A program made the translations under genes and the position numbers. From the NCBI GenBank assembly GCA_044892505.1, contig CM097883.1, positions 448,632,001-448,696,000 on the forward strand: 64,000 nucleotides of DNA, given 5' to 3'. The DNA is from Schmidtea nova (lineage: Eukaryota). The notes under the pieces are model-generated. The model saw only the letters and a program-made list of their open reading frames with translations. It had not been told where the DNA came from and did no database searches. Shown here piece after piece: positions 4,746 to 29,585 of the stretch; position 1 is the stretch's first letter, and the number at the start of each line of letters is the position of its first letter.

Positions 4746-4749
4746 AAAG
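4746..4749. other. Target-site duplication AAAG (left copy; right copy at 34268-34271)
   Basis: aaag immediately precedes TG at 4750 and immediately follows CA at 34267. Confidence 0.85.
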
Positions 4750-5217
4750 TGCTGGGTTCATGGAGGGGTTAGATGAAAAATGCTCTAACAATGACTAGGG
4801 ATCCCTCATCCATGATCATGCATAAAATTGCAATTTTACACTCAAGCGCCCTTGATTATTTCCCTATATAATCAAGTTGGTGATGCGCAGGGTGGTTAAA
4901 CAATGATGGGCAGGTGAGCACTATTGCTAGTACTACTCCCCATTTATGTTTACGGGTCCATTGCTGCCGTTAGAAGGACTTACGCTTTAATCATCCCCTT
5001 AGGTATTCCGTGTTAATCTTTCAGAAAATTCATTTTTATCATTACTCAGTCTGCGAGAAGTATTTCAACGAATGCTCGCTTAATTATTTAATTATCTCTA
5101 TTCGATATTTTGTAAACTGAATTTATACTTTTGTTCTATCTTTATTTAATCATTGGTAAAGTTAATTAAATCAATTTAAATGAACAATGAGATTCTTAAG
5201 CCAATGCAACAATTTAT

Positions 5218-5814
5218 TTAATTTTTAATGAGTTCGGTAAAAACTCCCGCCGGAGGAAAAATCTCCGTCAATAATGCTTCCTCAGTCATCTGATGTAGAC
5301 CATCGACTTGGATTTGTAATTGCTGGGCAAATAATTTTCTCTGTCTCCGCCGTTTCTGCCCAATGCGCTTGCGTTTCTGGTGCGCAGTCGCCGATGAAGT
5401 GGTTGAATTGGCTGGAGGAGCTGTCTCATTCCGACTTTCAATTAAATCGGGGACATCCGTTCCAATGGAGTTTACTGTCTTCTTTTCTGCCGTCCAAGCT
5501 TGGTACGTAATCGGACGGATTTGCTCTCTGAGTTCCTTCTCGATGTATGAGGCAGTTACGGAATGGAGGCATTTTCGGAGTTCTATCTTTGTAGCCTCCC
5601 ATTCCATTTGGTAATCGGCTGCAGTCTGTTGGGCGCGCTCGGTTTTACTGATTTGCTCCTTCATTCGGGCCGGAGCAAACCAGCTTTTGCGCAAATATGC
5701 AATCTGTGCCTCTGCTTTGATCAATTGTGCCTTGAGGAGACCCAATTCCTTGTCCTGGGCTCTCCGAATCCGCCACATCTTTTCCAATTCTTTCTGCATC
5801 AAATCTGGGTTCAT
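5218..5814 (-). CDS. LTR-encoded ORF L2 (198 aa), coiled coil plus Arg/Lys-rich motif; 3' LTR copy
   Basis: ATG preceded by ttatAG-a; translation identical to 31622-32218; QKRKRIGQKRRRQRK motif. Confidence 0.75.
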   Translation of the reverse strand: MNPDLMQKELEKMWRIRRAQDKELGLLKAQLIKAEAQIAYLRKSWFAPARMKEQISKTERAQQTAADYQMEWEATKIELRKCLHSVTASYIEKELREQIRPITYQAWTAEKKTVNSIGTDVPDLIESRNETAPPANSTTSSATAHQKRKRIGQKRRRQRKLFAQQLQIQVDGLHQMTEEALLTEIFPPAGVFTELIKN

Positions 5815-5998
5815 TCTATAATTTATTTAGGATATTTACTCTATGATTAAATGATGTGAAAAATGAAACTGATCATAGGGTTATTTGGTTACGAATATGA
5901 ATTATTAAAAACACAATACCAAAACTCAAAACAACATAACAAAAACACTGCTGAATATTAATATTTAATCACAATTTGAAAGATTTGACAATCAGTTC

Positions 5999-6439
5999 TT
6001 ATCTCCGAAACAGGCTATGTAATTCGCTGTTAATCGGTTTCTGACGGAGACGAGCCCAAGAGAATGAGGGTTGTCCTTTCTGGCACTCCTTGCCGAACGG
6101 TTTTCGTGGCAGGAATTCGTGTAGGCCTAGTTGGCATAGTTCCCGACGAGGGATATGCCCCCAATAAATTACACGGCTTGTCTGTCCATCGGTGTCCTTG
6201 ATCAGTACGACAAGTCGGCCAAATTTGTTTGAGTACGGCCTTTGAGAAATCGGCCAGTTCCATATCGAGAACGGGCATTTTCGGCCAAACCCCTGTCGCC
6301 ACTTATACATTTGGCAGTTGAGGGTTCGCAATATCGATGCTGGTAGATCCTTGAGCTGCGAGATATTTTCATTCCGCAGATTCCCTTGCTCCATATTCCG
6401 TAGTTGCGTTAATTGATTTGTAAGTTCAGCTGTCGACAT
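5999..6439 (-). CDS. LTR-encoded ORF L1 (146-aa version), unknown function; 3' LTR copy
   Basis: ATG directly after aatatAG; same as 32403-32882 but lacking 13 codons. Confidence 0.65.
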   Translation of the reverse strand: MSTAELTNQLTQLRNMEQGNLRNENISQLKDLPASILRTLNCQMYKWRQGFGRKCPFSIWNWPISQRPYSNKFGRLVVLIKDTDGQTSRVIYWGHIPRRELCQLGLHEFLPRKPFGKECQKGQPSFSWARLRQKPINSELHSLFRR

Positions 6440-8026
6440 CTATATTACATTTATTGGATATAAATATGAGTTAAGGGGGAAATTCGTTGATAATTTAATT
6501 ATGTTGCATATAATCACAACAGTTAAAAAATGAGATTAATTTTATTTCTCTCCGCCGTGATCTACCACGGTCGGAATAAAGAGTTCATAATTAGTCCTGT
6601 GCTATATACAGCATTCAGGAATTATCAAATTTAATCAAGATTTCCGCGCTATATACAGCGATCGGAGAATAACTTGGGAAACCGCATCATATACGACGAT
6701 CGGCCTATTTTTAGTAACTAATTTAATTTGGATTTTCCGACGCATTCCATCGCGATCGGAATTTATCGATATTAAAATTTTGTAGGCGAAATGCTGATTC
6801 CGAATGAAATCGGACTTTGGACTACGTTGGATTTTCTCATTCCAACGAAATTATTCAAATTTATTTTAGTTGTTGCTCACTGTTTTCCATGCGGGAGGTT
6901 CCCTTTCGATTCAATTTACCAAAAATTTAAAGACTGGGCATGCCCTACCATGGGGTGTCCCTCCTTATCCATCCGCCCTCCGCAATCTACATATTTGGCC
7001 CTCGACCTTCGTCCGTTGTGCAACCCAAAATTAAATAATTTGCAAATGGTCTGTATTAGACTAAAAATTCAATCAAATTTTCTAGATAAAACTTCACATC
7101 TAAATTAAATAATAAAAAGGTTGAACCGCCATGTGAGACCGTGAGGCCCCACAACGACGACTCGGACTCCCTCGCCGCGTGAGCAGCATAGGAAGTATAG
7201 CTATATGCATGAAAAATAATCAATGAAAAAATAAAATAACGTTTACATATAAGATTTTAATTAAATAAAAAATCATGGGTACATAAAAAATAACAATCAA
7301 AATTACGTTCCGTACCTGAATTCTGTTTTTTCAAAAAATTCTCGCTTCGTTAAATGAAATGTTACTTAAATCAAAGTTTAGTCTTGATTGTAAGTGAAAT
7401 GTAAAACGTCTTAAGTTGAGTTATGATTTTTGGATCGGTATTTATACTGATCCGTCTGGTTGGATTGACCAATCAGGATCAGGCCGTCCATCAAAGTATT
7501 TTTATTATTTTATTCTAATCTAAACATTATTTTGTTTCCTTTTCCGGTTTCTCGCTGGGTGGTCCTGATTTTCCAAGTAATTAATTAATTATTTGTACTA
7601 TTATTTTATTTAATTCTATTTTTTCTTATTTCAGGCCCCCTTTTGCGGTTGTTTACCGGTTTATTTTCAAAATTTCCTTTTACTGAAAATTTATCAATTA
7701 TTATTTGTCGTTTTATTGTTATTTTTAATTTGTTTTTCATGCTATTTTTATTTTTATTATTTCTTTATTGTTTCATGCTTTTGTTCGTTTTATTGTGTTT
7801 TTAGGTGATTTGGCGGGCCCAACATCACCCGGGGACCCCTAAAATTGCGTCCCGCAATTAATTATACATAAATACTTATATTCATCATCCATAAAAAGTT
7901 TTATAAAGTTATACATGCAAAGAAAATCACATAAGGTGATCGAATTTATACATATCATAAAGTTTGTCATTAAATAGTCAAAATGTAATGATTTGTCACA
8001 ATAGTTCGGTAAGTTTATCATAATGT

Positions 8027-8596
8027 TTATACAATTTGTTCGATCGTCTGGCTCGCTTGGGGTTGAGTTCGGGTCCTCTCGTTGATCATTTGTAGCTCGT
8101 AGTGGGTTTGAATGTGGTTGAGATGGCTCCTTATTCGTCTTTGAGCTCGGTTATCTCGTCTGGAGGTTTGGTTGTAGATTTTCTGCTTTTGTTTTAGGAT
8201 TTTTATTCTATACGAGGCAAGCAGGATTGTGATTGCGATGATAGTTGTGCTGACTGCTAGGATTATGATGATTGCTATGATCCATTTCTCTTGATATTCT
8301 ATTTCAGCTTGGGATAGGCTTTTTATGGGTTCTCTACCTTCTTTCAGGATTTTTCGGGTTTCTTCTAGTTTCAGTTGTTGGTTATCGAAGATTTGTTGGA
8401 TTTGATGGTCTTGATTGTGAGGGTATTTCTGTCGGAATTCGTTGATTTCTTTAATTACTTCTTCGATTAGGCTGTCTACTTTCTGATAGGTTTTGTCGGG
8501 TAGAACTCGTAATTGGGTTTCGGTTAGTTGTAGATCTTCTCTCTGTAGGGTAATGGTTGTTAACCATAGGAGTGTTGTTATTGCGAGCTTTCTCAT
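8027..8596 (-). CDS. Accessory small type I membrane protein (~189 aa from ATG at 8596)
   Basis: MRKLAITTLLWLTTITLQ signal-like N-terminus, helical ectodomain, TM WIIAIIIILAVSTTIIAITILLA, basic tail. The ORF-track start at 8629 is a GTG. Confidence 0.75.
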   Translation of the reverse strand: MRKLAITTLLWLTTITLQREDLQLTETQLRVLPDKTYQKVDSLIEEVIKEINEFRQKYPHNQDHQIQQIFDNQQLKLEETRKILKEGREPIKSLSQAEIEYQEKWIIAIIIILAVSTTIIAITILLASYRIKILKQKQKIYNQTSRRDNRAQRRIRSHLNHIQTHYELQMINERTRTQPQASQTIEQIV

Positions 8597-8671: not shown

Positions 8672-9733
8672 TTATACAAGGGTTTCGTTGGGTTCGTGAA
8701 AACCTTCGTCTTGAGGTTCCACCTGATTTATGGGGAGTGGCATCCATATTACCGTGCTCCTCCACATTTCGACTTCTTCTCGGTATGTGTGGGATATCTG
8801 GATCTCTTCATCTAATAAGTATTCCAGATAGTTCGCCTGTTCTGTTAGGGTTTCAATTTGTTTTTCTAGTTCTGCCAATTTTTTCTCTCTCTCTTCCTTC
8901 TCCATCATTTCGGTTACTGCTGCTGTGATTCTTGTTTCTTTTATTGGTATTGGTTTTTCTGCCAACTTCTTTCTCAGTTCTTCGTTTTCTTTTGTCAAAT
9001 TTGTTATGTTCTCTTCATAACTCTGCCTCGTTTCTTCCAGTCTTTCTTTAGTTCTTTTTAATTCTATTTTCTTCTGGGTAATCACTCCTTGATATCCATT
9101 TATGTCTCTTTTCATGTTTTCCTCCTTGTGATTCCACATTCCGGTCAGCATACCTTTTAACTGTTCTTGATTGGCTAAATCTTCTCCCATTCTTTGTACT
9201 TGATAAGTTAATTCTTTTATTTTCTTGGCTTGTTCTCTGATAAATTGTTGTCTTTTCTTACTCCATACTTTATTTGACGCTTCTTGACTGATCTTTTGCC
9301 CTAATTCCTCTTTTAATTCATCGATCTCTTTAAACAGTTTCCAATCATCGCTGTACGCTGTTCGTTCTATTATCTCCCTTGCTTCCTTGTAAGAGTCTTT
9401 TGCCTCTTTCTTCCAATATCTTGCTTGTTCTGTGATTGACTGAATCTTATGGTCTGTTTTTATTTGTTGTCTATCCCTATCCTCTCGTCGCTCTTTCATC
9501 ATCTCTTTGTAGTATTCGTTTTGTTGTCTTAGCAGTTTGTAGACTTCTTCTATTTTTTCTCGACTTCTTTGATTCGTTTTCTCGGCTTCTCTTAGTGCTT
9601 GGGTTTGTCTTTCCAATTCCTCCTGTTTTCGGTAATAGGCATGAATCCATATCCCAATCCGCTCCATGTGATTTCTGATCATTTCGTCTTGATGTACTGT
9701 TACTTCTTGTAAGGTTACTTCTATATTTCCCAT
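8672..9733 (-). CDS. Accessory long coiled-coil protein (353 aa)
   Basis: E/K/Q/R-rich helical composition throughout, same strand and codon bias as the polyprotein, ATG after tatAG-aa. Confidence 0.8.
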   Translation of the reverse strand: MGNIEVTLQEVTVHQDEMIRNHMERIGIWIHAYYRKQEELERQTQALREAEKTNQRSREKIEEVYKLLRQQNEYYKEMMKERREDRDRQQIKTDHKIQSITEQARYWKKEAKDSYKEAREIIERTAYSDDWKLFKEIDELKEELGQKISQEASNKVWSKKRQQFIREQAKKIKELTYQVQRMGEDLANQEQLKGMLTGMWNHKEENMKRDINGYQGVITQKKIELKRTKERLEETRQSYEENITNLTKENEELRKKLAEKPIPIKETRITAAVTEMMEKEEREKKLAELEKQIETLTEQANYLEYLLDEEIQISHTYREEVEMWRSTVIWMPLPINQVEPQDEGFHEPNETLV

Positions 9734-9845: not shown

Positions 9846-11222
9846 TTACGCCAACCATCCTTTTCTGTCTGTTTTCTCATGCCTCTCCATCTCTATGTAT
9901 AGCGTGTCTGCATATAGTTGCTCCCATAGGTTTTCTTTCCTTATAAACATTGGTTCTCCTGCTGCTAGTCCGCATTCTGTCGTTGGTTTTTCGCTCGTAC
10001 TCGAATGTTTGTCTGTTTCAAAGAACTTTTCTACTGGTTTTCCCATACTTTTGATTCTTATAATGACTCCTATTTTCAAGGGCCATTCTATTAGGTCATC
10101 GTATTCTCCTTTACATAGTGAGAAGAATATTGACACGTGTGTTCCTTGTCCTCTTCCGTCTCCATTTGGGTATACTTTCAATCTTATTTTAACCCCGTTT
10201 TTCCATAAATAAAATGGTGGGCTTATTACTGCTGTTTTCGTCATATTTCTGGCTTCTGCTAGTTTGTCTCTGAAATCTGTTACTTTCCATAGGTAAGGTG
10301 CGATTGGTAAGTCCCTTCTTTCGTCAATTTCTCGTATTAACTGATTATATTGTATTTTCATTCCTTTTCCTAATTCTTCTATGGCTATTATTTTCTTTTC
10401 CATTCTTTCGCGAGTTAGTTCAAACTGCTCTCTTGTTTCTAGTAGTAAACTCATCATTATCTTATGTGATTCTACTTCTTTTTCTAATTTCTGGATTGTC
10501 TGTTCCGTTTCTTTTGTCGTTTCGTTTGTCATTTCCACATGCGTTAGTGCTGCTTCTTCTAGGTGTTGTTTCATTGATTGCCGCGTCCGCTTTTCTTTGC
10601 ATCCCTGCTTGTTATATGGACATTCTCTTGGTCTTTCGGTACATACTTTCCAATGTTCATGTAACTTTACTTCTTCTGTTATTTCGCAATTGTTTGGACA
10701 TTTACTTACATATTGTCTGCATACTTTCTCTTCTGTTATATTCAAGTGTTCCTCTTCGATTTTTCTCCTTGTTTCTCGAGTTTCACAATACTCGCATGCG
10801 ATTTCTTCTTCTTTACATTCTTCCTTGTGTTGTTCTCTCTTCTTTAGAGTTATTGTCTGTTGGCATTTCTCGCATTCGGCTCTCTTTTCCTCGCATTTTT
10901 CCATATGGTTCTCTAGATTGCTTATTTGTCCTTGCCATGTACAAGGTGTATTTACGCACTCCGTTATGGTGCTCATAATTTCTCTCTGGGTTGCTTTGTC
11001 CGTTCTGGTTTCGTTCAACACTATTCTTCCTTCTTTACATTCTGGGCATGTTGTTATTCCTGTTACATCTAGTTCTTGTATACATTTTGTACATATTCTA
11101 CATCCACATATCGTTTGTCTGGGTTCTCGTAATAAATTGTTACATTTTCCGCATGTGAGCCTCTTGCTCCATTTTCTGTTTTCTAATCTCAAAATTTCGA
11201 TTATTCGTTCTTCTCTGTCCAT
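9846..11222 (-). CDS. Element-borne complete TRAF-family protein (458 aa): RING, TRAF zinc fingers, coiled coil, MATH domain
   Basis: CGKCNNLLREPRQTICGCRICTKC...CPEC RING; CPYNKQGC zinc finger; MATH motifs YLWKVTDF, SPPFYL, LKVYPNGDGRGQGTHVSIFF, YDDLIEWP. Confidence 0.93.
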   Translation of the reverse strand: MDREERIIEILRLENRKWSKRLTCGKCNNLLREPRQTICGCRICTKCIQELDVTGITTCPECKEGRIVLNETRTDKATQREIMSTITECVNTPCTWQGQISNLENHMEKCEEKRAECEKCQQTITLKKREQHKEECKEEEIACEYCETRETRRKIEEEHLNITEEKVCRQYVSKCPNNCEITEEVKLHEHWKVCTERPRECPYNKQGCKEKRTRQSMKQHLEEAALTHVEMTNETTKETEQTIQKLEKEVESHKIMMSLLLETREQFELTRERMEKKIIAIEELGKGMKIQYNQLIREIDERRDLPIAPYLWKVTDFRDKLAEARNMTKTAVISPPFYLWKNGVKIRLKVYPNGDGRGQGTHVSIFFSLCKGEYDDLIEWPLKIGVIIRIKSMGKPVEKFFETDKHSSTSEKPTTECGLAAGEPMFIRKENLWEQLYADTLYIEMERHEKTDRKGWLA

Positions 11223-11314
11223 TTTCTACAATAATATATACATTCGACTTGTCATTTATTTTTGGTTTTTCTTGTTTTTATTTTTACATATTTACAGTTT
11301 TCCGCTTTATTTAT

Positions 11315-11671
11315 CTATGGCTCATTCGTTGAATCTGGTTCCGCTTCGTTGTTTAATCTATTTATTACCCAACTCATCCATCCTTCTTCGGATCCTTCTC
11401 TTTCTCCTCGTGTTAAATGGTTTATTTCTATTGCTTGTCTTTGATTGATATTGCTTATATTTTGATTTTCTCTGGTGAGCTCGGTTATCACTCTTTGTTG
11501 TTCTTCTATTCTGTGTAATTGTTCGAAACAGTTGTTATAACTTTCTGATAATAACATTTGTCTTTCCGCTAATTGGTTCTGTAATGAGTTGACTGTTCGT
11601 ACTAATAAATCACATTGTGCCTTCCATCTCATAGCCATAGTTATTTCAGTTGTTTCGTCCTGTTCGGTCAT
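11315..11671 (-). CDS. Accessory short coiled-coil protein (118 aa)
   Basis: Heptad-like L/Q/E pattern; ATG after atttAG-aa; first ORF after the polyprotein stop. Confidence 0.7.
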   Translation of the reverse strand: MTEQDETTEITMAMRWKAQCDLLVRTVNSLQNQLAERQMLLSESYNNCFEQLHRIEEQQRVITELTRENQNISNINQRQAIEINHLTRGEREGSEEGWMSWVINRLNNEAEPDSTNEP

Positions 11672-11795: not shown

Positions 11796-14700
11796 CTATA
11801 CCATCATTATCGTCTTTTCCTCGTATCGTTCTTCATCTTCTATTTGTTTCCAGAATTCTTTACCTTTCGTTCTTCTTTGGAATTCTTGCTGTATCTCTTC
11901 TGGTATTTCTATTCTTTGCTTCATAATTTTAATATCTGGCCATTGTATGGCTGTCGCTTTGTTTCTCTTTCTGTATCTCCAATATATTATCATGCTTGTC
12001 GTCATTATCCCATATGCTATTAATATTCCTATACTGATTAATCCTATTACTGTTTTTCCACGGTTTGTTTCTCCTTTATTCTGGTTCGCTTTTATCTCAT
12101 TTTGGGTTTGAGCCTCTGGCTTCCTCTCTTTCTGTATTTGACTCTTAACTTTGTTCATTACTTCTTGTGTAGACCAATGGCGATTTAGTAGTTGTTTGAC
12201 GTTATTTTCTTTTGTTCGGTTTTCCACGTTTCCTGGTTCGATCTGCTGTTGTAGTTTCTCTGAGATCTGATATAATCCGCATTCTGGGTTTTCTGAACCT
12301 TTACTGGTGAAGGTACATATCGCGTATGTCCTATTTACTTCCATTTTCTTTAATTCGACTTTTTCTTTATTCTTTATTTCTTTACAGTGGGTTAGGTTGT
12401 CTTCTTCCCCTTCTGGGTTATGCTTTGTCCAACATATTCCTTTAACTGTCTGATCGAGTCCTGTTAATGTCAGAGTTCTTTCTGTCTTTGTTAATTCTTC
12501 TTCATCGAATTTCAGTATTTCTCCTTTTTGGAATGTCTTGCAATGCTCTATTCCCTCTTGGATTCCTCTCTCCCAGATACATATACTTCCTTCTTCATTC
12601 ATTTGTATTTCTTGTATTTCGATTTCCTTGTTTGTTTGTGATTCGTCGCTTGTCTGTACTTGGTATTCCTTCCTTGGTTCGTTGTATGTTCCCCAGCATA
12701 GTTTGTTGCTACTTGTTTTCCTTATTGTTATGGCCATTTGTTCTATTATTATTCCTTTATCGATGCGTTTGGACATTGCTAGTATTAATGCTATGCATAC
12801 GCACTCCTGTTGGGGTGATATTCTTTCTCTCGTTTTATTGGTGCTTCTCTCCCCTTCTCTTGGTTTGTTCGTTGTATTTTCCTTCTGAGTTGCTGGTCGA
12901 TCTATTGTGGTTTTGATCTCTTTCTTTGTTGGTTTTACTTTGTACCACTCAAGTCTGGGCGTTTCATTTTTTTGACATACGACTGTCTTAGGTAGCCCTG
13001 ACTTCTTTTCCTTTCCTATTATACATATCCGATGCATGATTCCTCTGTCCATCCCTTCTATTCGTACTATATCCTGGTCGGATTTTCTGATTATGCATTT
13101 TAGTGGGTTATCTTTCCCAATTGGTTCATCCTCTCTATTCCAGCATATTTTCTCGACCTCCTGGACATTTACTATTTTTATCCCTGTTTGTAGGTTTGTT
13201 GCTTCTTCCCTATTGATTAATGTCAATATTATTGTTAGACCCAACCATCTTGAACTCTGCGATAGGCTTCTGGTTCGCCTTTCATATTTTTTCTCTTCGC
13301 CTTTAGTCTCTTTCGTTTCCTTGTCTTTGTTGTTTATTCCTAGTTTTCCGCTTTTTGCTTCTTTCTCTTTTGGTTCTTCTCGTGCTTTTTCTTCTAGCAT
13401 TTCTACTCCATGGCTTGTATTATCTATATTTAGCCATTGGGTTGTTGATTTTCTTGGGCTTATCTTGCGTATCCATATAGCTGATAACGCGATTATTACT
13501 GGTATGGTTGCTGTTAATATTCCTAAGCCGATTAGTTCTTTAATTTCTTTATTCTCGTCTGTTTGTATAGGTTCGCTTTGGTTGAACATTATTCCGTATT
13601 GTCCCTTTAGTTTTCTCATTAATTGTTCTCGTTCCTCTTGCTTTCTTTTGACTTCTTTGATAACTTCTTCAGGTGTCCATTTTGCTTGAGGGTCGGTTAT
13701 TGTTTTTTCTGCGTCCATTTGTTCATTCGTTTGGCTTAGTTCCCTGAATTCGAGTTTCCTTGTTATTCCTTTCGATGTTGCGTTCGCTGGTGTATAGTAG
13801 GTTTCGCATCTTTCTTGTTGGTTTCCTAGTGCGTCCGTCTTTTCTATTGTACATACTTCATACTCGCTATTAAATTGTAGTTTTTCGATCTTGATTTCTT
13901 TATTTGTTTTTCTGCACTCTCTTGATTGTCTTCTTATATGTTTCTGAACTATTATCCAACATATCTCTAATGTTTTATTCTCTATTTTCCATAATGTCAG
14001 AGTTGCTGATGTCTTTTTCTCGGATTTTGTCGTAACTTCTTGGCTTATCGGTTGTTTATTGTTTTTAAAGGTAGTGGTGTACTTCGGTTTCCCTTTGTTT
14101 CGTTGTCTTCTTTTATTTTTTCGTGTTAACGTTTTAGTTCTGGTTCCGGATGAAGTGGTGTATATTCCGCATTCTAGGTCGTTTATCGTTATCTGATCAT
14201 TTTTCTTTACCAGACATATTTCGTAAGTTTGTTTACTTTCTAAACCTTTTATTTGTATCGTCGTTGCTCCTGTGCTTGTTCGACATTGTGGTGTCTTTCT
14301 TTCATTCGTTTCTTTTTCGTACTTCCTCCAGCATACTCCTTTCACATTTGGTTCTATTTCTTTTATTTCTAATGTTATGTTCAGTTTCTGCTTGATTTGT
14401 TTATTTCTCTTCCTCGTTCTCCTTCGGAACTTTATTACCTCTCCAGGTTGGAATGTTTTACATTTTGTGGTACCTTTCTTGTTCCTCTCTTTCTCAAGTA
14501 GGCATAGTTTGTACGTCTTGTCTGCTCTTACTTCGGATACTTTAATTACTTTGTTTGTTGTGGGTTTTCGACTTTTCCTTATTTCATTTACGCCGATTTC
14601 TTCGTCATTCCTCGCCCAACATTTTATGTTAGTGTTCTGTGTATCTTCCACTTCTGTTATTGTCATAGTTTCAATTTCTATTCCTTCCTCTAATCGTTTT

Positions 14701-17700
14701 ATTATTATTAGTATGAGTGCTAAGCATAATACTTCCATTTGGTAAGACACTCTTTCGGTTTCGTTTGTGGCAATTCTTGTTTCGGGCCTCTCTATTGTAA
14801 TTCGTAGGGTTGGTGTTGTTTGCTTATCTATTGCCTGGGGTTTTTTATTTTCTGTTCTCTGTGTCTCTGTTCTTCCACATTTTCCGATGATGTAATCTCC
14901 TTTGGGTGACTGTTGTATTGTCATGGCTGCTTTAGGTGTTTGGTATTTTGCACATGCGATTGTGTTGTGTGATCTTGGATGTTTTTGTTTCCTAACGGTG
15001 CATATTTTGTACCAGGTGTCTAGATCTAGGTCGTTGATCTCTATGATCTCTTGCTCGTGTTTTGAGATTCTGCAATCCATCGGGCTATTTTGTTCCGTGA
15101 TTTTGTCCTTTTTTGACCAACATACTCGTTCGATTCCTTTTGCGTTTTTTATTTGTATTATTGCCCTTTCTTCACATGTCATTCCTTGACTTGGGTTAAT
15201 TAACGTTAAAATCACTGTTAATAATAGTAATTCTGGTTTGAAGAATGGTTTTATGGTTGATTTATAACTTGTTCTTTGGGTGTCATTTTTATCTCCTTGG
15301 TCGTTTTTTCCTTGTTCTCCATCTCCATCTCTTTGTTTTTCGTCTTCACTTTTCTTTTCTTCTTTGTCTCGTTTCTTGTCTTTTCTCTCGTTTTCTTCTT
15401 TATCGGGTGGTTCGTGATCGTTCGAATTTTCTGAGTTGTTACCGTCGTCACTATCTGTATTGTCATCTCCCCCTGGCTCGTCGAAAATGTCGTCCTCGAC
15501 ATTGATTTCTTCTATCAATTTTGCATATGCCAATGTCGTTAGATTACTTGCCTCAAATTCTTGTGTTTCTACTTGCTCCGGTATTGCTTTGTTAGTGGAT
15601 TTATGTTCCAAGATTTCCTTTTTGGCCTTGATCCAATTGTTGATGTATGTCTTCATCAATTCTTTCCATTTGCCTGTGTATTTTTCTTCTTTCGGGCTGT
15701 TTGTGATTCTTAGATCCTTTCTTTCCATAAACATCTTCAATATCTCTGGCCATTTATACGTTATTAAGGCACTTCTTATACACCAGTTTTGGTTATGTTC
15801 TGTAAACTTATTAATCCTGAATGCTGGTTCGTTAGTATTAGGATTTATCCACGTAAGTATTGATTCTGTTAGTTCGACGTTGTTCATCATTGCTAGTACA
15901 CTGGGTTTCTTGACCGTATCAGTTAGGTGATCTATTTCTTCCTGATTTGGGACGGTTTTTAGGAAGTTGACCATTTCCCAATTATGTGTTAGTAACGCTA
16001 CATCCAAAATTGAATTATCTTTATCTGTTTTACCTGTAAGTCCTGCACCTGCTTTGTATAGTTCCTCTAATACCTTTGTTTTCGTTTTGGCCCTTGCTGC
16101 AAATACCATAAGTGTATCTCCTTTCTCGTCTATCATATTCATATTGCTTCCGCAATTTAGCATTACTCTTGCAATCTCCATTACTTTTCTATCTTTGCCA
16201 TTTCGTAGAGCTCTATGTGGGGGCATTATTCCGTCCTTTGGTAGTAAAAATGTTACTGGCATCTCCTTTTTTATTATTACTATGTCGTTTCCGTTGTAAG
16301 TTCCTTTTGCGTATGCGTGTACTTTTTCAACTAATGCACCGAGTATTTCCAGTGCATGTTTACTATTCTCGAATTCTGGTAACAATTCTTTTGCTTTTTC
16401 TTGTATCGCATCTAGTCTAGCTTGGTATGGTGCTTCTGCTTTAAAGAGTGGTGTGAGTTTCTTGTTACTTTCTCTTTCTTTTTTCTCCAAAACCTGTTTG
16501 CATTTTTCGGGATGGTTTAAGATTTTCACTAATTCCTCGTACTCACTTACTATTGTCTGGTATTTCTCGTTAAAATTGTTTATGTCTTTGTATGTTATTA
16601 GTTTGTCAAATGGTTTCGCACACCATTTCCTAATCTTGTTGAATAAGGCTTCCTTCTCTTTATCGAATTTGTATTCTTCTTCATTCTTTGTGATGTTTAT
16701 GTTTCCTCTGTCTAATAAGGTTAGTAATGTCTTCTGATCACAAGTAAATTTCAGAAGATATCTTAACAACGCGTTTTGTCCTTCGCTGTATACTTCGTTT
16801 ATGTCTAAGACCCATGTATCATCTTCTGGTCGTTTCCATTTGACTAACTTACGGATCGTGTTGCATTTACCAATTTTGATTGCCTCTTTGATAATGTCTC
16901 CTTTAACTAGTTCGTCTATCTCCCAAGTGGAGTTAACTATTATGTATTTCAGCATTGGTTGGTGAGAACTCCATATTACGTGATTTAGCACTGTTTTGTC
17001 CTCTCTATCTCGTTCTGTCCAACTGAAATGGGCTTTTATCAATAAATCTACCATTTCTTTATCTGCTTGGTGGATTGCGGCTGTCATTAATGGAGTTTCT
17101 TGTTCACGATTCCCTACGTCCAAGTTTTGGTTTGTTTCTTTTGCGATTTTTAGGAATTCTTTTGCTCTTTCAATGTTTTTACACTCTATCGCATTATGTA
17201 AGGCTGGTTGTCCTCCTACATCTTTCAATAAGAGTATTTCAGGGATTTTTTCCAATAATTCAGAAATAATTGGTTCGGTTGGTAATCCTTGCGCGTAACG
17301 GCTAATCATATGTCTAATATCCCTTGATATGCCTGCTTCGTCTCTAACATGCCATCTTCCCATTATTTCTCTCGCCTTCAATATGATCTCTTTGTTTCTG
17401 ATTTCTTTTTGCCTTATTTCTGCTTTGTCGTCTTCAGTTACATTAGCTCTGAGCATATTTATCCTGGCTGTTTGTGATCTAGTTATTATTCGATTTTCTG
17501 GTGTTGTAGTTATCGTTTTAGGCACCTTTTTACATCTGCAGGTGTTTACATATATGGGTCGTATTAAGGGTCGATTTATTAGCTTAACTTTGACATTATT
17601 GTCCTTTTTGTATATAATTTCATAAGGTCCTCTTCCAGGTCTTTGGAGTTTCTTAACTGTTCCTGGTATTATTTCGGGAGTTTCTATTATCACCCAATCT

Positions 17701-20700
17701 CCTGGTTTTAGATCGTTCGCTTTAACATTTTTCTTCTGATCGTGTAAGTCCTTATAACTTTCCTGATAAAATTTAATGTTGAGTTCTGCCGTTTTCCATA
17801 TTTCCTGCATTCTTTCTTTGAATTTGGTTATGTAGTCGTCGTCTTCCATATATTGCGATAGTGGTGGCTGATACTCTAAATCTATGGGCATGTTGCATTC
17901 TCTTCCATACATAAGTTGAAATGGGCTTAGTTTTGTTGCTGCATGTATCGACATTCGGTATGCCATTAAACATAATTTTATGTATTCGTCCCAATCAGTT
18001 TGATGTCTGCTGACGTAATTTGATAACATTCTAATCAATGTACCATTGAATCGCTCCGTTTGTCCATTCGTTTGCGGGTGATATGGTGAAGTTCTCAATT
18101 TTGCTATTCTGAAATAGTTTGTTACCTCGTTCAATAGCTCGCTCATAAAATTAGTTCCTTGGTCTGTGAGAATTTGTTTTGGGGTTCCGTATCTGCAACA
18201 TATTTCTTCCACTAAAATTTTTGCTACAGTTTTTGCTTTTTGGTCTTGCATGGCAAATGCTTCCGGGAATTTTGTCAGATAATCTGTTATCACTAATATA
18301 TAAATATTTCCGTTTAGACTTTCCGGTAATGGTCCTATTACGTCCATTGCTATAGTTGTCATTGGCTCTGCTGGTATCGGCATTGGTTGTAGCGGGTTCT
18401 TCCATTTCTTCCCACTATCCTTTCTGGTTGCGCAAGTTAGACAATTTTTAATCCATTCTTTTATATCTTCTTCCATTGTTCGCCAATAATATTTTTGTCT
18501 CATACGATTTATTGTCTTCTTCTCGGACATATGGCCTCCTAATTTCCCATCATGGTACTGGATCATTATCTCTTTCCTTCTGTTTTCCGGTAAACACATC
18601 AATCTCTTTTCTCCGTCTTGTATTAACAACCATCCTTTATTTATTATGTAGCGATGTTGATATTTTCCTATATGTTCCTTTAATTCCTTATTCTCTTTGA
18701 ATACCTCCATGTTTCGAGATGTTAGGAACTCTATGATTTGTCCTAATTCTTTGTCTTCTTGTTGATCTTTCTTAAGCTCGCTAAAATCTAAATCTTCTGC
18801 TATTAATACACAAATTCGTTGTACATCAGGATCGGTTAATTCCGGAAATGTCAGTCTTGACATACAGTCTGCATTCGCATTTGCTCGTCCTGATTTAAAT
18901 TTTATGTCCGGTGAGTACTCCTGTAATTGCATTGCCCATCGCATTAGTCTACTAGATGTTTCCTTGTGCTGTCCTAACCATACAAGCGGTTGGTGATCTG
19001 TTGTTATGCAGATGATGTGTCCCCATAATAAATATTTAAAATGTTTTATTGCTAGTATAATTGCTAATGCTTCTCGCTCGGTTACCGAGTAGTTTTTCTC
19101 ATGCTTTTTGAATGTCCGGCTATAATATCCGATTACCCGTTCTTTTCCTTCATCGTCGTATTGTCCTAATACTGCTCCTGCTGCATATCCGCTTGCATCT
19201 GTTGCAAGTAGGAATGGCTTCTTAAAGTCTGGGTGTACCAATATGGGTGCGGTTATCAATTTATCTCTCAACGTTTCAAAGGCTGTTTGTTGTTCATCTC
19301 CCCATATGAATGATACATCTTTCTTTACCAGTTCCTGTATAGGCTTTGCGATTCCGGCGTAATCTTTTATAAACTTCCTATAATATCCACATAATCCGAG
19401 AAATTCTTGTATTTGGGTTATTGTTTTTGGTACTGGACATTCTTTTACCTTGTCGATGTTTCTAGGATCCGGTTCTTTTCCTTTTGCTGACACTATATGT
19501 CCTAAAAATGTAACCTTTTCTTTTGCCCAGTCACACTTGGATGGCTTGAGTTTTAACTTCCATTGTCTAAGTCTAACGAATACATCTCGAATATCCTGTA
19601 TGTGTTGTTCGAATGTACTAGAGTAAATCAATAAGTCGTCGATGTAGACCATGCACTGCTTTATTCCATGGGTGATGAAATTCATGCATCTCTGAAATGA
19701 TGCTGGTGCGTTCGTTAATCCAAATGGCATCTTTCGAAATTGATATAGGTCTCTACCGATGGTAAAGGCAGTTTTCTCTTTATCTTCTTCCTTCATTTTT
19801 ATTTGCCAATATCCGCTTTTCAGATCTAACGACGTAAAATATGCTGCTCCTTGTAATGTTAGTAGCATCTCGTTGATGTCTGGTAATGGGTAAGTATCTC
19901 GTTTTGTCACTGTATTCAATCTTCGGTAATCTATACAGAATCTCTGTGTTCCGTCTTTCTTCTTCACCATTACCACTGGAAATTGCCAGGGTGAACAACT
20001 TGGTTCGATTACTTCTGCATCCAACATTTTTTTCACTTCTGCTTCTGCTACTGCTTTCTGTGCTTCCGCTAATTTGTACGGCCTTAATGCAATTGGTGTT
20101 TCATCTGTTAATGGTATTGTATGTAGTGTGACATCACATGTTCCTAGATCCAAATCGGATGCTGCAAATATATCCTTATACTCTATCAGGAGTTTTTCTA
20201 ACTGCTTCCTTTGATCCTCATTTAATAATTCACTATCTATATTCCAGGTTGGCTCTTTATCTTTCTCTGCTCCTTCTATTGGTAGTTCGATATCCATCAT
20301 TGGGGTTAGTTTGCCTAATCTTTCGTTTTCGTAGATTATTTTGTCCTCTTCATCGAAGTTTACTATGTTTATTGGGATTTCTCCATCGTCATTTATGTTG
20401 ACTAGTCCTCTTGCCATTGGCAACGCTTTTCTTTTCTCGAATCTTTTACTTGGTTCGAAAATCATATCCCCTTGGATTATTGGATCTATTTTTACATAAC
20501 ATATTTTTTCCTTTCTTGCGGGTATGATCATTTGCTTTGAACTCGTCACTTTAGCTTCTATTGCGCATATCTGCCCTGTGCGATCCCTCAGTCTCATTGT
20601 TCCGAGATCGATTACAATTTCTTTAAATAATGCTGGCATCAAATCTGTTCCGATGATGCAAGGTACGCTTAACGCTGGTATGACTGCTACATACGTATCG

Positions 20701-23700
20701 ATTTCTGTATTTAAGTGGCGTATTTTTACCCACCATCTTCCTGCTACTTCTACAACTTCTTTGCTACATGCAATTACATGGACGTTTGTCCTTTCTATAT
20801 CTCGTCTTTGCTCTTGTGGTATCCATTTGATGTCGATGGCGGAAATGTTTGCTCCAGTGTCGATCATTGCTTCGATTTCTCTTCCGTTAATTTCTATTGT
20901 CGTGGTTAGTACTGGACCTGTGTTTGATGACATTACTGCGATCGTGTGTGTATCTCCTTGTGGATCTACGCTTCTACATCTTCTCATTTTATAATCTTCT
21001 GGTATCATGGGATATACATTTGTCATTGGCATCATTTGCATCGTGCTATTTTTTCCTCCTTGTAGTGGTTCTTGATACATGGTTGGTGGAGGTGCGTAAC
21101 ATTTCCATGCGTCGGCTGGATTCTTTTCGATGTATTGTGGTGCTTGGTTCTTATACACTTGTCCTCCTTTATAGTCGTCATCGTCGTCATCGTCGTCACT
21201 CGAATCATGTTGGGTTTTATATCCTTTCATCCTCTCCCATAAACCTTTTCTTTCTCTCTTGAGCTGTTGTCTTGCTTGTTCGTCATTCATTATCTTTTTA
21301 AATTTTCGTCCCACTTCTTCATCTGTTCCCTTCATTTTTGCTAATATCTTTAGGAGTCTTTTTATTCGGTGGATATCTTTTGAGTGACCGTGTAACACCA
21401 TCGTTTTCGCAAGGAATGGTAAAAATCCTACTACCATTTTCCAATTCACTTTCTTTTCTCTCTTGTAGATATCGAAACATGCTAACATTTGTGTTATTAT
21501 CACTCTGACGATTTGGATTATTAATATGACCCCCAGTATTCCAGCCATCATTTGTCCGAATATCAAGAATCTTCCCCACATTGCTTTCATCATGTTTTCT
21601 GTGGCTTTTTTGAAATGTGCTGGTGACAACAACAGTTCATAATTCGGTCCTTCTCGATAATCCGTTCCTCCCGTTATCGTTACGATATTTGACAATAATG
21701 CTTCTCTTCTCGCTGGGAATAATATATTCTGCCTTGCTGCTTCTAAATCCTTTGGACTATATATTCCATTGTTTGAGACATCCACGTCGCTAAATTGCCT
21801 ATCCTTTGACAACTGCATTAGCTCGAATTCTCTTGGTGCTATCACTTCGGATCTTCCTGGGAACATAACCCATTTACCATCTGGTTTCTGATAAAGCGGT
21901 CCATACGCATTACTACAGTTGAATGGATTTGGTTCAAACCCTGGTGGATTGATGATTCTCGTCACCGGTTGAACGTATCGTACTTTTCCTTTGTAATCGA
22001 TTTCTAACTCATTTGTACAGGTTCCAGGTTTCAACTGTGTTGTTGCTGCTAGCGACGCGTGTGTCTTTTCGCAAATGTATACATACATTGCTTCTCCAAC
22101 CACTCTCCCGAAATGTCCTTCTCTCAGTGGTAATAATGGCATCGCGCTATCTGGATTCGTAATCGCTACGGCCAATTTTGTCTTTAGTATTTCTCGATTC
22201 AGTATACAATCGTTATTGATCAGATCGTAATACACTTTTTGTAATGAGGCTTGTCCTCTATGGAATAGGAAATCCATTTTATTATTCACATACAAGTGTA
22301 GTTTGATATCCATTGTGTCGATTTTGGGTTTCGCATTTGGCACTTCTTGTTTTGACACATATATTCCTGGGTAATTCGTTTCGTATACCGTTGTACTACA
22401 CTTAAGGGTTGCTTTCCCTTTTATGAATCTCATTCCCACATCTTGATTTGTGGTTATCAATACTGTTGGTGTGGCTCTCATCTCTATTCGTTTTTCTCTA
22501 TGATCTGGTTTCAGTTGTCTTTTATTCTCTAAAGCTTCCTTGAGATGCTTTGCTCTAGCTTTGTCGTCATCGTCTTCTTCCTGAAACGTTTTTCCTTGGA
22601 TTTCGTCGAACTTTGCTCCTTGTAGCAGTTGTAACTGACATTCGTTCATCTTTGGTTTGTACACTAATGTTGACATTCCCGTTTGACACATGCTCCTGTC
22701 GATTTTACACATGGATAACGTTTTCATTTCTCCCGTTGTTGGTTCGAAGAATGCTTCGTAGCTTTTTAGTTCGACTATATACGTATCCATTACTACTAGG
22801 TTGGTTGCGGGTACTCCGAATATCGGGTAGGTTTCTCCTTGACAATATCCTTCTCCTCCCGTAATCCGTCCTGCTACATAGTACGTTTGTTGCATCATCA
22901 TTCCTGGCTTTCCTCTTATCTTGATTTTATCTCTTGTTGTTACTTCTCCATGTTTAAACAGTGCTTCGCAGTCTTCTCCTTGTAACACGATTGGTTCTCT
23001 TTCCGTTCCTGGCATGACAATTGCTGAATAATGTCCTCTCCCGCAGTAGAATGCGAATCTCGTCTTCTGCACTTTACATTCATTCACCATTGTCTTTATG
23101 AGTTCTGCTTCTTGATACACGTGGTACCATTGTTCCTTTTTAATCTTTTGCAACTCTACTGGAGTTGCATCTTTGCATTGCTCCGTACCTCTCAATGAAT
23201 ACTTTTCTCCTAACTTCATTTGGTCGCAATCAAACACTTCGAATGCTGTTGCGCTATCGGTGCTAATCATCCATATCAACATCATCATTATTATAGAACT
23301 CAAATTCATTGATGACTTCGCGTGTCCTGTTCCTGCTTGTTCTTTTTCTAACTCTTCCAATATTTTTTCGAATTTCTTTTTCATATTCTTCGCTTGCGTT
23401 TTCTTCTGGTTAGTTTTTATAAATGTTTCCCATCCTCCTTTGTTAATGACGTATGGTTCTATTTCTCTTGCTATAATTTTTGCGGTATTTTTTATATGTC
23501 TCTCTAATGCAGTGGGTTTTGGTCGACCTCTACTCAATGTCAACAAATTGTATATCGTGTATGCAATGGCTATTACGTATTTGTTATCCGTTTCCGCTCC
23601 TTCTGTCAGTTTCTTTATTAACATAGTGGTTCCTTGCCAGTCTAAATGGTTTGACTTCGTCTTTTCTTTTATGAATTCCGGTAAGATGGGTGCGATTGCG

Positions 23701-26700
23701 CTGTGTAGTGACTTCGCCTTTTCGCTTATCTCGGTTATACGCCAGTATTTTCTTAATTCCGGATCAATTATTGCCAATATTTCCATTATTGTTTTCGATA
23801 TCCATTCCTCCCCTTGACATATTGGTGTTGTCTCTTTTTCTTTCATCTCCGCAATTTTATTTAGTTTCCTTAAACATAATTCCCATTGATCTTGTCTCTT
23901 TTCGTCTTTATTTCTTACAACTACAGTTGTTGGGTCTGTCTTAGGTCTACCTCTAGGTCGTTTATCCATTCCTGTACCTGTTTCCACAAACCTTGTTGCC
24001 CGTCCTGTTTCTTCCGTAACATCTCTTGGTTCGTTAGCTCTTTCCTCTAACCATCTTTCCATTTCTTGCGTTAATTGTACGTTTTCGACATTCGCTCCTC
24101 TCGTTTCGTCTTCTGTCAAATCGTTTACTTCTTCTATTATTATTTCTTCTTCGACTTCTGTTTCTCCGGTGTTGGTTACTTGTATTGTCGTAGGTAATTC
24201 TTGTATTCTTTCGAAAATGTTATCGTCTTTTTCCTTTGTTAATTCGGTTAATTCTTCTATCATATCGTCGCTATCCGTTAAAATTTCGTCCACGTCGTAT
24301 GGTTGTGGTGGAGTCCTTTCTCTATTCCCTCTGGGTGTTGTCTCAGATCGTTTCGAACTTGTCCCTGGTGTTAGTACTGATTTCATCGGACTCGGCGTAC
24401 TTATACTTCCGTGTGGTTTACGGTTTTCTTCTTTATGTTTCAATGGTTGACCTGCTATTGCTTCTACTGTCAAGGTATTCATGAGATCTAGTTGTGCTGG
24501 CGTTATTCCAATTTCCAAACTGTTATCTAATGATCGTCCTTGGTGTTGTAAATGGAATGGTGGTTCGTATCTCAATTTCTTTTTAATATCTCGAATTTTT
24601 TCTGCTATTCCTACCCACAACTCTTCCTTATCCTTGTTTGGGTATATTATTCTTAAATGTACTTTCTGTGGAATTTCCTGCGAGAATTCTTGGTTTCTCC
24701 ATTTCCTAATTACATGGTCTAGTTGTTCCGGGCACCACTCGTTAACTCTTTTATATTCCGCGATTGCTTTTGCTACTTTACGCAAGCATGTTATATCTTC
24801 CCCATTTACCACGAAAAAATCTGCGAGACCCTTTATTAATTTTCTCTTACCGTGCGCATTAGTTTTTAATATTTCGACGAATTCTTCCGTTTTTTGCTTT
24901 TCCCTTTCTAACCACATGGCTGCTGTTTCTGGTCCATCTAGGTCTATTGGCGTAGCTTTCCTTGTCACCATGCAAACCCTTCCTATCTCTGGTTCGCAGT
25001 CATCTTCAATTCCTCTTTTATATTCTTCTTCATATTCCCCTTCTTTTGGTTCCCAACATTTTCCTTTCTCGTTCCATTGTTTTTCTACGGGTGTTCGTAT
25101 TCGTCTGTTGAGATTGAGTTCTTCTAATACATTTTCCCACTCTGGCCAAATTCGCCAATTTCGATAAATTTCTACTATTTGTTGTAATTTACGCACAACT
25201 TCTTTCCGTCGTTCCCGTTCTCTTTTCTCATCTTTAGCAGTTTCTCTTGGTGTATCGTCCATTCTGCTAACGTGGATTGTTTGGTGATTATCCCATATAC
25301 CGATTTTATATAATCGTCTCTCATCGTGATCCCATAATACATGTTCGTTGTATTGTATGATTATGTCGTCTTCCCATTCGTCTTCTGGTTCTCTTTGCAC
25401 TAGTGTCTCGTTGATGACATTTATTAATTCTTTAATGGTGCAATCCGCTACCACTTCAATTTCTTTGGTGTCTTCATTAGGCAATTCTACTGAAATTTTT
25501 AGATCTGTTATTTTCCCTTGTCTGAACATTGTTTTTCCCATTTTTGCGATTAATTTGTCGTGTGAGATCTGTGACCATCTCGTGTGGCTTGTGTCACGTA
25601 TGCACTCAATACATCGTTTCAATTTCTCGTATTCGCTTCTCATTAACTCTTTTCTATGTTTTTTGACTTGTGGTATGATTTGTTCTATCAGGGAATTTAG
25701 ATTCTTTCGCAAAACTCGTTCTTTCTCGTATTCTAACCGTGGTTTTATTCTCCGTTCGAAGCACGCGTTTGCTTCCCTTGCAACTTCTTGTAGGTTCTCT
25801 TCTTCTTTTTCATCACATATTGATAACAGAGTTATTTCTCCTGGCCATATACCTGTTTCTACTAAGTGCGTTCTTTTCTTTACGAGTCTATTCTGCGAAT
25901 AGATGAATTTGTTTTTGTATGAGCTCCCTAGTCTATCCTCTACCCATCTGTAGATATCGTCTGTAAATGGAGTTTTGATCCAGATTCTTGGTGTAGATGT
26001 ATTTATTATTATTGAGATGGTGTAATTGAGGAGTGGTTCCTCTATTAATTTCCCTACGTATCGATTCAACATGTCTACCTCCCGGTCTTGTAACCATTCT
26101 TTGTAGTTCATTTGTAGTAATGCTTTCATGAATTTCCGATATTGTTTCTTGTCCATGAACTCTTCGTTATATATTACCTCTAGCGAGTTATCTAATAATT
26201 TCTGGATTTCATCTACTTTTATCTGTGTAGGTTCTGAGGTCTTTATTACTTCTCTCTCTTTATTTTCGTCTTCGGATTCGTTTAATATGTCTCCTGCTAG
26301 GCTACTGATGTCACTATCTTCTTCCTCATCGGAAAACTCTCTGGTGGTATTTCTTAGCATATTAATATGTGCTATTTGGTTCGTTTCTCCTTGTATATTC
26401 TCCGTTGGTTCTGGTTCGTTTTTGTCAATTTCTGGTGTTGGTTCACTCTTGTCCTCTATTACTTCGACTTTTTCCAATTTCTTTCCCAACTCGTCAATCT
26501 CTTTTAAACGTCTTCTTATCATTTTTCCTTCAAATATTCGCCGGATTCGGGTTTCGTGACGTATTGGTGGTGGAATTTCTTCTGGTTCTATTTCTTTAAT
26601 TCTCATCACATTTCTTTTTGTTTCTACTACTCCCATGTTTTCCCATATATCCGTTAATTTCAATTTTACTGATGGTGCACCCTCTATTTGTAAGAACGCT

Positions 26701-29361: not shown

Positions 29362-29585
29362 ATGGCTCTTCCGGCCTCAATTTTATATCTCACATGGCTC
29401 TATTGGCCTCAATTTAATCTCTCAAATGGCTATCTTGGCCTTAATTTAATCTCTCAAATGGCTCTCTTGGCCTCAATTTAATCTCTCAAATGGCTCTCTT
29501 GGCCTTAATTTAATCTCTCAAATGGCTCTCTTGGCCTCAATTTAATCTCTCAAATGGCTCTCTTGGCCTCAATTTAATCTCTCAT
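29362..29585. repeat. Tandem array, 7 x 32 bp, in element leader
   Basis: Unit atggctctcttggcctcaatttaatctctcaa at 29362, 29394 ... 29554. Confidence 0.92.

Follow-up and report, generated by a model that had tools for sequence, protein, structure and literature searches.

A full-length TRAF gene between pol and the 3' LTR of a Burro-type element in Schmidtea nova, probably carried as old cargo

Does a complete TRAF gene that lies inside a retroelement represent a fresh capture or a cargo that the element has long kept, from which lineage could it have been taken, and what might it do for its carrier? These questions are raised by a locus of Schmidtea nova, which was analysed in a window of 64,000 nucleotides (NCBI GenBank assembly GCA_044892505.1, contig CM097883.1, forward-strand positions 448,632,001 to 448,696,000; coordinates below are those of the window). 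A 29.5-kb Gypsy element with Burro architecture lies on the minus strand, and between its pol region and its 3' long terminal repeat (LTR) sits a TRAF open reading frame (ORF) of 458 codons, which runs from an ATG at 11222 to a stop at 9846 and contains no internal stop, frameshift or intron. At the local base composition, the odds of a random frame of this length are about 4e-15. The evidence presented here points to a gene that is old cargo of the element rather than a fresh capture.

The predicted protein has the parts by which the TRAF family is recognised: a RING followed by TRAF-type zinc fingers, a coiled coil and a TRAF-type MATH domain. They were placed as follows.
9846 to 11222, minus strand: full-length TRAF ORF, 458 aa (ORF scan, Pfam, AlphaFold2, Foldseek).
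11037 to 11153, minus strand: RING, aa 24-62, with eight predicted Cys ligands, Cys41 in place of His, and Lys26/Asn28 at the TRAF6 Ile72/Leu74 positions (alignment).
10539 to 10958, minus strand: five TRAF-type zinc fingers, aa 89-228, with the finger 3 spacer H159-x8-C168 (Pfam and ligand census).
10323 to 10550, minus strand: coiled coil, aa 225-300 (continuous helix in the model).
9885 to 10295, minus strand: MATH/TRAF-C domain, aa 310-446 (Pfam, PDB, Foldseek).

In a Pfam scan at E<=0.01, MATH_2 was matched at aa 310-446 (E 9.6e-21) and zf-TRAF at aa 166-220 (E 2.8e-7), TRAF-mep_MATH was above the cut-off, and no RING model was reported. Residues 17-147 were aligned to the RING and zinc fingers of TRAF6, TRAF5 and TRAF2 chains of the PDB (E 8e-13 to 3e-10). 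The RING follows the pattern C24-x2-C27...C39-G-C41-R-I-C44-x2-C47...C59-x2-C62, in which Cys41 replaces the His of TRAF2/5/6. An AlphaFold2 model, built on a 104-row alignment, had a mean pLDDT of 93, with a single helix at aa 225-300 (pLDDT >90 along most of its length) and a beta-sandwich at aa 310-448. When this model was submitted to Foldseek, the top rows were TRAF domains throughout (E 6e-17), and the solved structures nearest to the MATH domain were those of TRAF3/5/2. Identity to named animal TRAFs was 25-30%.

An earlier note on this DNA had described a complete, intact TRAF inside a retroelement, with RING, zinc fingers, coiled coil and MATH domain free of introns and lesions. This description was borne out by the open 458-aa frame, by the Pfam, PDB, AlphaFold2 and Foldseek results and by the boundaries of the element given below. 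The note was also right that the Cys-for-His variant of the RING (CGCRIC, at Cys41) recurs in a second TRAF sequence of the window, as CGCRFC at 58945.
57282 to 59041, minus strand: host-type TRAF pseudogene with a Cys-RING, fewer fingers, and stops and frame changes ahead of its MATH part (Pfam, tblastn).
Introns were not seen in this host-type pseudogene either, so the lack of introns does not discriminate between the two, and it was rejected as proof of retro-capture.

The carrier is bounded by two 3.1-kb direct repeats, which were detected by self-comparison of the window, have TG...CA ends and are flanked by a 4-bp target-site duplication (TSD), AAAG.
31154 to 34267, minus strand: 5' LTR, 3,114 nt, with two internal ORFs and a donor-like GTAAGT at 31387 (self-comparison, TG...CA ends).
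4750 to 7824, minus strand: 3' LTR, 3,075 nt (self-comparison).
4746 to 4749, no strand: TSD AAAG, partner copy at 34268-34271 (flank comparison).
11796 to 28778, minus strand: polyprotein, 5,660 codons from stop to stop, 5,487 aa from its first ATG at 28259 (ORF scan, Pfam).

As the two LTRs differ by 1 substitution in ~3,075 nt plus one 39-nt indel, the insertion is very young. The polyprotein contains, in order, Gag with CCHC knuckles, a Monjiviricetes-type fusion glycoprotein (E 2.8e-71), protease (PR), reverse transcriptase (RT), RNase H (RH), integrase (IN), ankyrin repeats (Ank_2) and a membrane-anchored repeat tail. Env is in frame inside this single polyprotein, with gag and pol on either side (zf-CCHC, Monjiviricetes_fusion, then RVP). 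By its size of ~30 kb, its LTRs and TSD, its PR-RT-RH-IN order, its single ORF of ~5,000 aa and its ankyrin, RING/IAP-type and MATH_TRAF cargo, the element is of the Burro type, although no BIR match was obtained.

Cargo of this class has precedents. MATH_TRAF_C, BIR and ankyrin were noted in GYPSM1/Burro1 (2007) and in Burro-2, -3 and -4 (2018) (PMC6431247), a fact already in print that went unmentioned in the earlier note. These S. mediterranea elements share with the present one the ~30 kb, the giant ORF, the Gag knuckles, the in-frame env and the ankyrin, RING/IAP-type and MATH_TRAF_C cargo (PMC6431247). In Burro1, however, the MATH domain lies inside a 4,873-aa ORF1 and BIR is present, whereas the window polyprotein is longer, has an FN3-like membrane tail and is without MATH (a tblastn search of the element with the TRAF found no second MATH domain); the window TRAF is instead a separate full-length gene 3' of pol. 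None of the published BURRO1 oligos (0/3) matched the window. Since the polyprotein has no MATH and these oligos do not match, the window element is not S. mediterranea Burro1. In a Burro-like element of Dugesia (Girardia) tigrina, MATH_TRAF_C is likewise found in a separate accessory ORF and not in ORF1, but that ORF lies upstream of ORF1 and MATH_TRAF_C is the only domain mentioned for it (PMC6431247), whereas the window TRAF lies downstream and has the full architecture.

Can the open frame itself be taken as a sign of selection? This argument was dropped: a neutral copy would still be open with P ~0.99 since insertion, and because the insertion is so young the intactness of the TRAF is uninformative. 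The same figure, which follows from the single LTR substitution, fits a rival explanation in which the gene is a neutral passenger, derived from a host TRAF mRNA by a single recent capture and intact through the youth of the insertion alone. So does the fact that no close copy was found: a word-index search with the single TRAF protein gave 10 matches at 24-37% identity, and in HMMER the identity to the element TRAF was at most 46% among the matches listed (150 of 6,047). Yet the latter value, and the 36-41% identity of the relatives described below, also weigh against a recent capture, as do the synonymous sites, which are fully element-like, and the acceptor and spacer motifs, which the TRAF has in common with its neighbouring ORFs. 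A neutral passenger was therefore considered very improbable.

The synonymous sites were compared directly. A occupies 72% of the 132 fourfold-degenerate positions of the TRAF, against 61% of 1751 such positions in the polyprotein and 38% of 104 in the host pseudogene, and for the codon usage of the TRAF the polyprotein model was preferred by 121 bits across 437 codons. Conservation reaches 80% or more across 103 other TRAFs in 61 columns; the element TRAF retains 55 of these, zinc ligands included. A neutral copy would still be open with P ~1e-4 after 0.1 changes per site and ~1e-12 after 0.3. Because the synonymous sites carry the A bias of the element and all zinc ligands are kept, the TRAF is read as old cargo, not a fresh capture, and we strongly infer purifying selection.

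Relatives of the element TRAF are consistent with such an age. A K/E/T/R/Q-rich make-up (0.41-0.49) was found in 5 of the 162 TRAF matches fetched, the remaining 157 being all at or below 0.36. These five proteins form a clade with the element TRAF, with a support of 96 in the Shimodaira-Hasegawa-like approximate likelihood ratio test (SH-aLRT) and of 98 under a mixture model, and they are 36-41% identical to it; one of them, P0013, is a full-length TRAF of 469 aa (36% identity). One element-like protein was contributed by a profile search. None of the 162 TRAF matches was matched by pol or another protein of the element, and a fused Burro1-type form was not seen among them, the 'longer' length class lying outside the word-index search.

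Several points weigh against this account and have to be set beside it. Six highly conserved positions are altered in the element TRAF, five of them within MATH, which fits either an altered specificity or relaxed constraint. The host baseline for the codon bias is a single pseudogene. Four of the five composition-matched relatives look truncated or scrambled at the C-terminus, and composition is the sole ground on which we infer that the five are element-borne. Upon Dayhoff-6 recoding, the five-row clade was kept (87.8/96), but the branch to P0013 had no support value. No MATH was matched in six other long polyproteins of the env-gag-pol kind, so the TRAF is not constant in the wider group. 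Finally, the analysis is based on one element copy with its genomic context, and the argument for selection comes from codon bias and not from dN/dS.

From which lineage would such a gene have been taken? The earlier note had suggested capture from the host TRAF family on the strength of the shared Cys motif. Among 160 fetched proteins examined (window proteins excluded), 123 had a pattern-matched RING and 22 of these a Cys-RING. In trees, 4 of the 22 fall among His-RING TRAFs, so the Cys-RING arose more than once; the His-to-Cys change is thus a weak marker of kinship. A rarer trait is the spacer of eight residues between His and Cys in finger 3. It is present in the element TRAF, in 4 element-like proteins and in 6 proteins of ordinary composition, and in none of 47 measurable His-RING TRAFs, 2 of which have a spacer of 9 or 11 (39 further were not measurable). 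Five of the six ordinary-composition proteins group with the window pseudogene in two trees (89; 91.9/78). As the Cys-RING and the eight-residue spacer are common to the element TRAF and to TRAFs of ordinary composition, capture from a host Cys-RING lineage, long ago rather than recently, is likely.

The trees speak neither for nor firmly against kinship with the pseudogene itself. The first tree had 59 rows (22 Cys-RING proteins, 5 further close matches, 5 named TRAFs, 24 of 70 His-RING proteins taken at random and 3 window rows); for the second set of 41 rows, 19 were dropped, P0161 was added and a quick mixture model was used; all trees are unrooted. The element TRAF and the pseudogene are 23% identical over 191 N-terminal columns and were not sisters in three trees, but the approximately unbiased (AU) test did not reject their sisterhood (p 0.147). 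Support for the wider Cys-RING clade was weak to moderate (89, 84 and 78.9/57). To the points against the preferred account must be added the last of these values, obtained under Dayhoff-6, and an AU test that left an origin outside the Cys-RING lineage unrejected (p 0.306). The note's proposal of a host-family capture is likely to be right, on the Cys-RING and the spacer together. The CGCR motif was not found among the protein sequences in the supplements of PMC8807557 and PMC7586133, the former of which includes 100 TRAF entries in its RING list, nor in a full-text literature search; the Cys-RING group is therefore not tied to named planarian genes.

The converse direction, in which Burro elements were the source of the planarian TRAF expansion and host copies derive from element copies, was also considered. 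The expansion mentioned in the earlier note is real, with 121 MATH domains (PMC6109357), the host-type copy is intronless too, and an unrooted tree is compatible with either direction. However, the pseudogene is without the element-like strand A skew (0.13 versus 0.46 for the element) and is accompanied by a remnant from a local duplication (51644-51507), and the Cys-RING TRAFs of ordinary composition fall outside the element-like clade. The idea that such elements spread TRAF copies found no support here, and an origin of the expansion from them seems highly unlikely.

The surroundings of the pseudogene contain local duplications. A ~600-bp duplication, 82% identical, is found at 51081-51688 and 56864-57465, with a decayed gypsy element between the copies. 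The MATH remnant at 51644-51507 lies inside it and is 70% identical to the pseudogene. A tandem duplication with a spacing of 109 nt (58975-59171) is located at the 5' end of the pseudogene. An assembly gap of 210 N (60573-60782) lies 1.4 kb upstream of it; the element itself is gap-free.

What could the element TRAF do? Its residues Lys26 and Asn28 align to Ile72/Leu74 of TRAF6, and the linker Arg is present as R80. A TRAF6 I72D/L74R mutant shows no Ubc13 binding, the linker Arg is needed for RING dimers and ubiquitin binding, and even a TRAF RING with poor E2 binding can contribute to ubiquitin transfer when it is part of a heterodimer (PMC5702613). The TRAF6-type Ubc13-binding surface (Ile72/Leu74) appears to be absent from the element TRAF, and since its RING is without the TRAF6 E2-binding residues the protein is probably an adaptor or a competitor. 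This argument is weakened by the fact that a hydrophobic E2-contact residue is also missing in 11 of 23 Cys-RING and 42 of 102 other matches and is thus not an element-specific loss; being common among TRAF matches too, the loss was probably inherited. The protein resembles animal TRAF2/3/5 and planarian TRAF-like proteins in architecture and fold, in having no TRAF6 E2-contact pair and in its linker Arg (PMC7586133, PMC5702613); it differs from animal TRAFs in the RING Cys for His, the longer finger 3, the element-like composition and the mobile-element carrier.

Survival of planarian cells depends on TRAFs (PMC7586133), and in a planarian screen of TAK1/p38/JNK signalling traf2-1 restrained infection pathology (PMC4993586). 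Planarian TRAF2/3/5 homologues are induced through TBK1, while no clear NF-kB homologue was identified in planarians (PMC13563047), which makes NF-kB, suggested in the earlier note as a signalling read-out, a poor choice in these animals. Stem cells are reportedly protected against apoptosis by a captured BIR-RING protein (IAP) of Burro1 (Lee et al. 2026, cited in PMC13465017). That Burro1 B-IAP, like the TRAF, is a captured cell-death regulator in a Burro element; it has BIR plus RING and a reported function, whereas the 5' ORF of the window element has a RING only and the role of the TRAF is predicted. In view of the survival roles of planarian TRAFs and of the Burro1 IAP report, a pro-survival role is favoured. 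With moderate confidence, the element TRAF is thus regarded as a long-resident, selected cargo that would serve as a signal-damping, pro-survival scaffold or competitor of host TRAFs. The companion cargo consists of an IAP-type RING and ankyrin repeats. A predicted complex between a trimer of the TRAF coiled coil-MATH part and the 5' RING ORF scored 0.00 and counts neither way.

The opposite sign of action must be weighed, since a viral TRAF is known to promote death. The genome of the fish megalocytivirus ISKNV encodes, in ORF111L, a captured TRAF that shares RING, coiled coil and MATH with the element TRAF; this protein belongs to a DNA virus, has 296 aa, is described without a zinc-finger array, and is pro-apoptotic via TRADD (PMC3352826). 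This too speaks against a pro-survival reading, and because ORF111L promotes apoptosis the direction of the effect is not given by the fold. The element TRAF could therefore be selected cargo of the activating kind, a TRAF2-like heterodimer partner or an E3 working with another E2, which would drive LTR transcription or particle release through host stress, proliferation or death signalling. Every RING ligand and the linker Arg are retained, poor-E2 TRAF RINGs still aid ubiquitin transfer as heterodimers (PMC5702613), and ORF111L, which binds TRADD, triggers apoptosis via caspase-8 (PMC3352826). The other cargo (IAP-type RING, ankyrin) and the reported anti-apoptotic Burro1 IAP point instead to survival, and activation was judged a minority possibility.

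A third role would be internal to the element, with the TRAF as an adaptor or ubiquitin scaffold for the trafficking or budding of the element's own membrane proteins. Env and several predicted membrane proteins are encoded by the element, and positions of the MATH groove have drifted: Y351, D355 and S407 are retained, G418 and E423 are changed, and in the MATH domain V344, L382 and T403 depart from the family as well. On the other hand, in the polyprotein tail and the accessory ORFs the TRAF6-type motif is absent and only scattered, chance-level four-residue TRAF2-type matches occur, and related env-bearing polyproteins have no MATH match. Such a role appears rather improbable.

For the favoured pro-survival cargo, the following course may be proposed. 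Long ago, a Burro-type env-bearing Gypsy element would have taken up a TRAF from a host Cys-RING lineage. The A-biased mutation of the element would then have recast its codons, while purifying selection in the element lineage held the frame open. The protein would be translated from its own subgenomic RNA, spliced to an acceptor just 5' of the ATG, and would form a TRAF2/3/5-like trimer. Its MATH domains would dock on the tails of receptors or adaptors, and its RING would probably fail to recruit Ubc13. By competing or mixing with host TRAFs, the protein would damp stress and death signalling through TAK1-JNK/p38 and of the TBK1 type, which would let element-expressing cells survive. A bolder version, to which we give little credence, treats the element as an enveloped virus-like agent in integrated form that is equipped with an interference kit (TRAF, IAP-type RING, ankyrin and FN3 decoy receptors) laid out as an operon resolved by the spliced leader (SL), in which the TRAF antagonises the expanded planarian TRAFs and the expansion reflects an arms race, or a mutualism like that of the Burro1 IAP.

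How could the TRAF be expressed? It is one of four same-strand ORFs 3' of the polyprotein (118, 458, 353 and 189 aa), and another accessory ORF lies 5' of the polyprotein.
11223 to 11314, minus strand: 92-nt spacer 5' of the TRAF, with TGTA and AATAAA motifs, a T-rich tract and a splice-acceptor-like TAG 3 nt before the ATG (motif scan).
11315 to 11671, minus strand: accessory ORF of 118 aa, no Pfam match (ORF scan).
8672 to 9733, minus strand: accessory ORF of 353 aa, coiled-coil-like (a Filament match below threshold only).
8027 to 8596, minus strand: accessory ORF of 189 aa with one transmembrane helix at aa 106-124 (ORF scan, helix prediction).
30364 to 30825, minus strand: 5' accessory ORF of 153 aa, with a family-less N-terminal region and an IAP-type RING (Pfam zf-C3HC4_3; cIAP2/XIAP RING, E 1e-9), in which no BIR match was found.

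An AG was present 0-3 nt ahead of the ATG in all seven accessory ORFs (two in the LTR, one 5' and four 3'), in the form of YAG in six of them. A YAG within 3 nt of the ATG thus occurs in 6/7 accessory ORFs versus 63/570 other same-strand ATGs (p 1e-5) and 6/86 non-coding ATGs; the first ATG of the polyprotein, which has no nearby YAG, was counted in the ATG background. The intergenic spacers of the 3' ORFs measure 124, 92, 112 and 75 nt. The motif TGTAAATA has five copies in these four spacers (shuffle mean 0.23; 0/1000 shuffles reach 5) and none in coding sequence, and AATAAA is marginally enriched in the spacers (50/1000 shuffles). TGTAAATA could represent the UGUA of a cleavage factor, or else a site for PUF or Forkhead proteins.

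Flatworms, including S. mediterranea, use SL trans-splicing, and the spacers in their operons measure roughly 100 to 300 nt (PMC12582326, PMC8629364). The 3' array fits such a layout, with ORFs on the same strand, spacers of the ~100-300-nt class and acceptors near the starts; the donor-like GTAAGT at 31387 would also permit retroviral-style cis-splicing. Expression of the accessory ORFs by cis-splicing seems quite plausible, SL trans-splicing is a possibility of some weight, and internal promoters are unlikely; these shares are judgements, not computed values. In a literature search at title and abstract level, no case was found of a retroelement that uses SL processing for an accessory-gene operon.

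The remaining parts of the element may be described more briefly.
31130 to 31147, minus strand: primer-binding-site-like 18-mer, 6 nt past the 5' LTR (position), putatively of the tRNA-Pro type.
12222 to 15173, minus strand: seven Cys-containing FN3-like repeats of ~88 aa, polyprotein aa 4536-5519, with hydrophobic helices near aa 4684, 5083 and 5580 (repeats, model).
The repeats have an invariant Cys/Trp, are modelled as a seven-stranded sandwich (pLDDT 79) and are separated into groups by the hydrophobic helices. With this model, VIA-align gave FN3 domains as the best structural matches, at a middling Z of 7.5, and Foldseek gave no match at E<=0.001; the tail possibly provides receptor-like or decoy membrane proteins. 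A BH2-like stretch was noticed by eye near polyprotein aa 1778-1788, but a BCL2-like domain ahead of env, a trait of Burro-type elements, found no support in Pfam, PDB and Atlas searches. Ahead of its first ATG, the polyprotein frame stays open over 173 codons (28778-28260), and an acceptor-like site is present at 28841. Two neighbouring tandem arrays, of 32-nt and 29-nt units, lie at 29330-29944 in the 5' untranslated region. Each LTR encodes two ORFs (32882-32403 and 32218-31622, with copies at 6439-5999 and 5814-5218) of 159/146 aa and 198 aa; the 39-nt indel is in frame within the former, and the latter is without the A-rich codon bias of the element. Elsewhere in the window, a separate gypsy element of ~4.9 kb (40680-45613) has short LTRs that are 96-98% identical and an interrupted gag-pol.

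The long polyproteins nearest to that of the window are 42-46% identical to it. In six polyproteins of 3,000-3,900 aa (P0164-P0169), a fusion glycoprotein is in frame before PR-RT-RH-IN, several have extra protease domains, and MATH or ankyrin matches are lacking. As judged from these predicted proteins, the env-in-polyprotein design extends beyond the window element.

In summary of what is new, TRAF/MATH cargo in Burro elements, a stand-alone MATH ORF in a Burro-like element and a viral TRAF in fish megalocytiviruses (PMC3352826) are already known. In the literature listings searched, and in PMC6431247, PMC8532177, PMC11410931 and 10.64898/2025.12.11.693146 as checked by term, no mention was found of a five-finger TRAF of full length placed 3' of pol, of the acceptor pattern or of the FN3-like tail, although Grohme 2018 and Lee 2026 may show some of these. 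A whole, free-standing TRAF copy would hand the element a ready tool for host-cell survival. Burro elements are expressed in planarian tissues, and the separate TRAF is a second cleanly bounded cargo gene after the IAP, open to knock-down. If the acceptors act in trans, this would be a retroelement exploiting SL processing for an accessory-gene operon. Element genes may be counted among the planarian TRAFs in transcriptomes, where A-rich codons could flag them, and the finding bears on the question of why planarians have ~100 TRAF-like genes.

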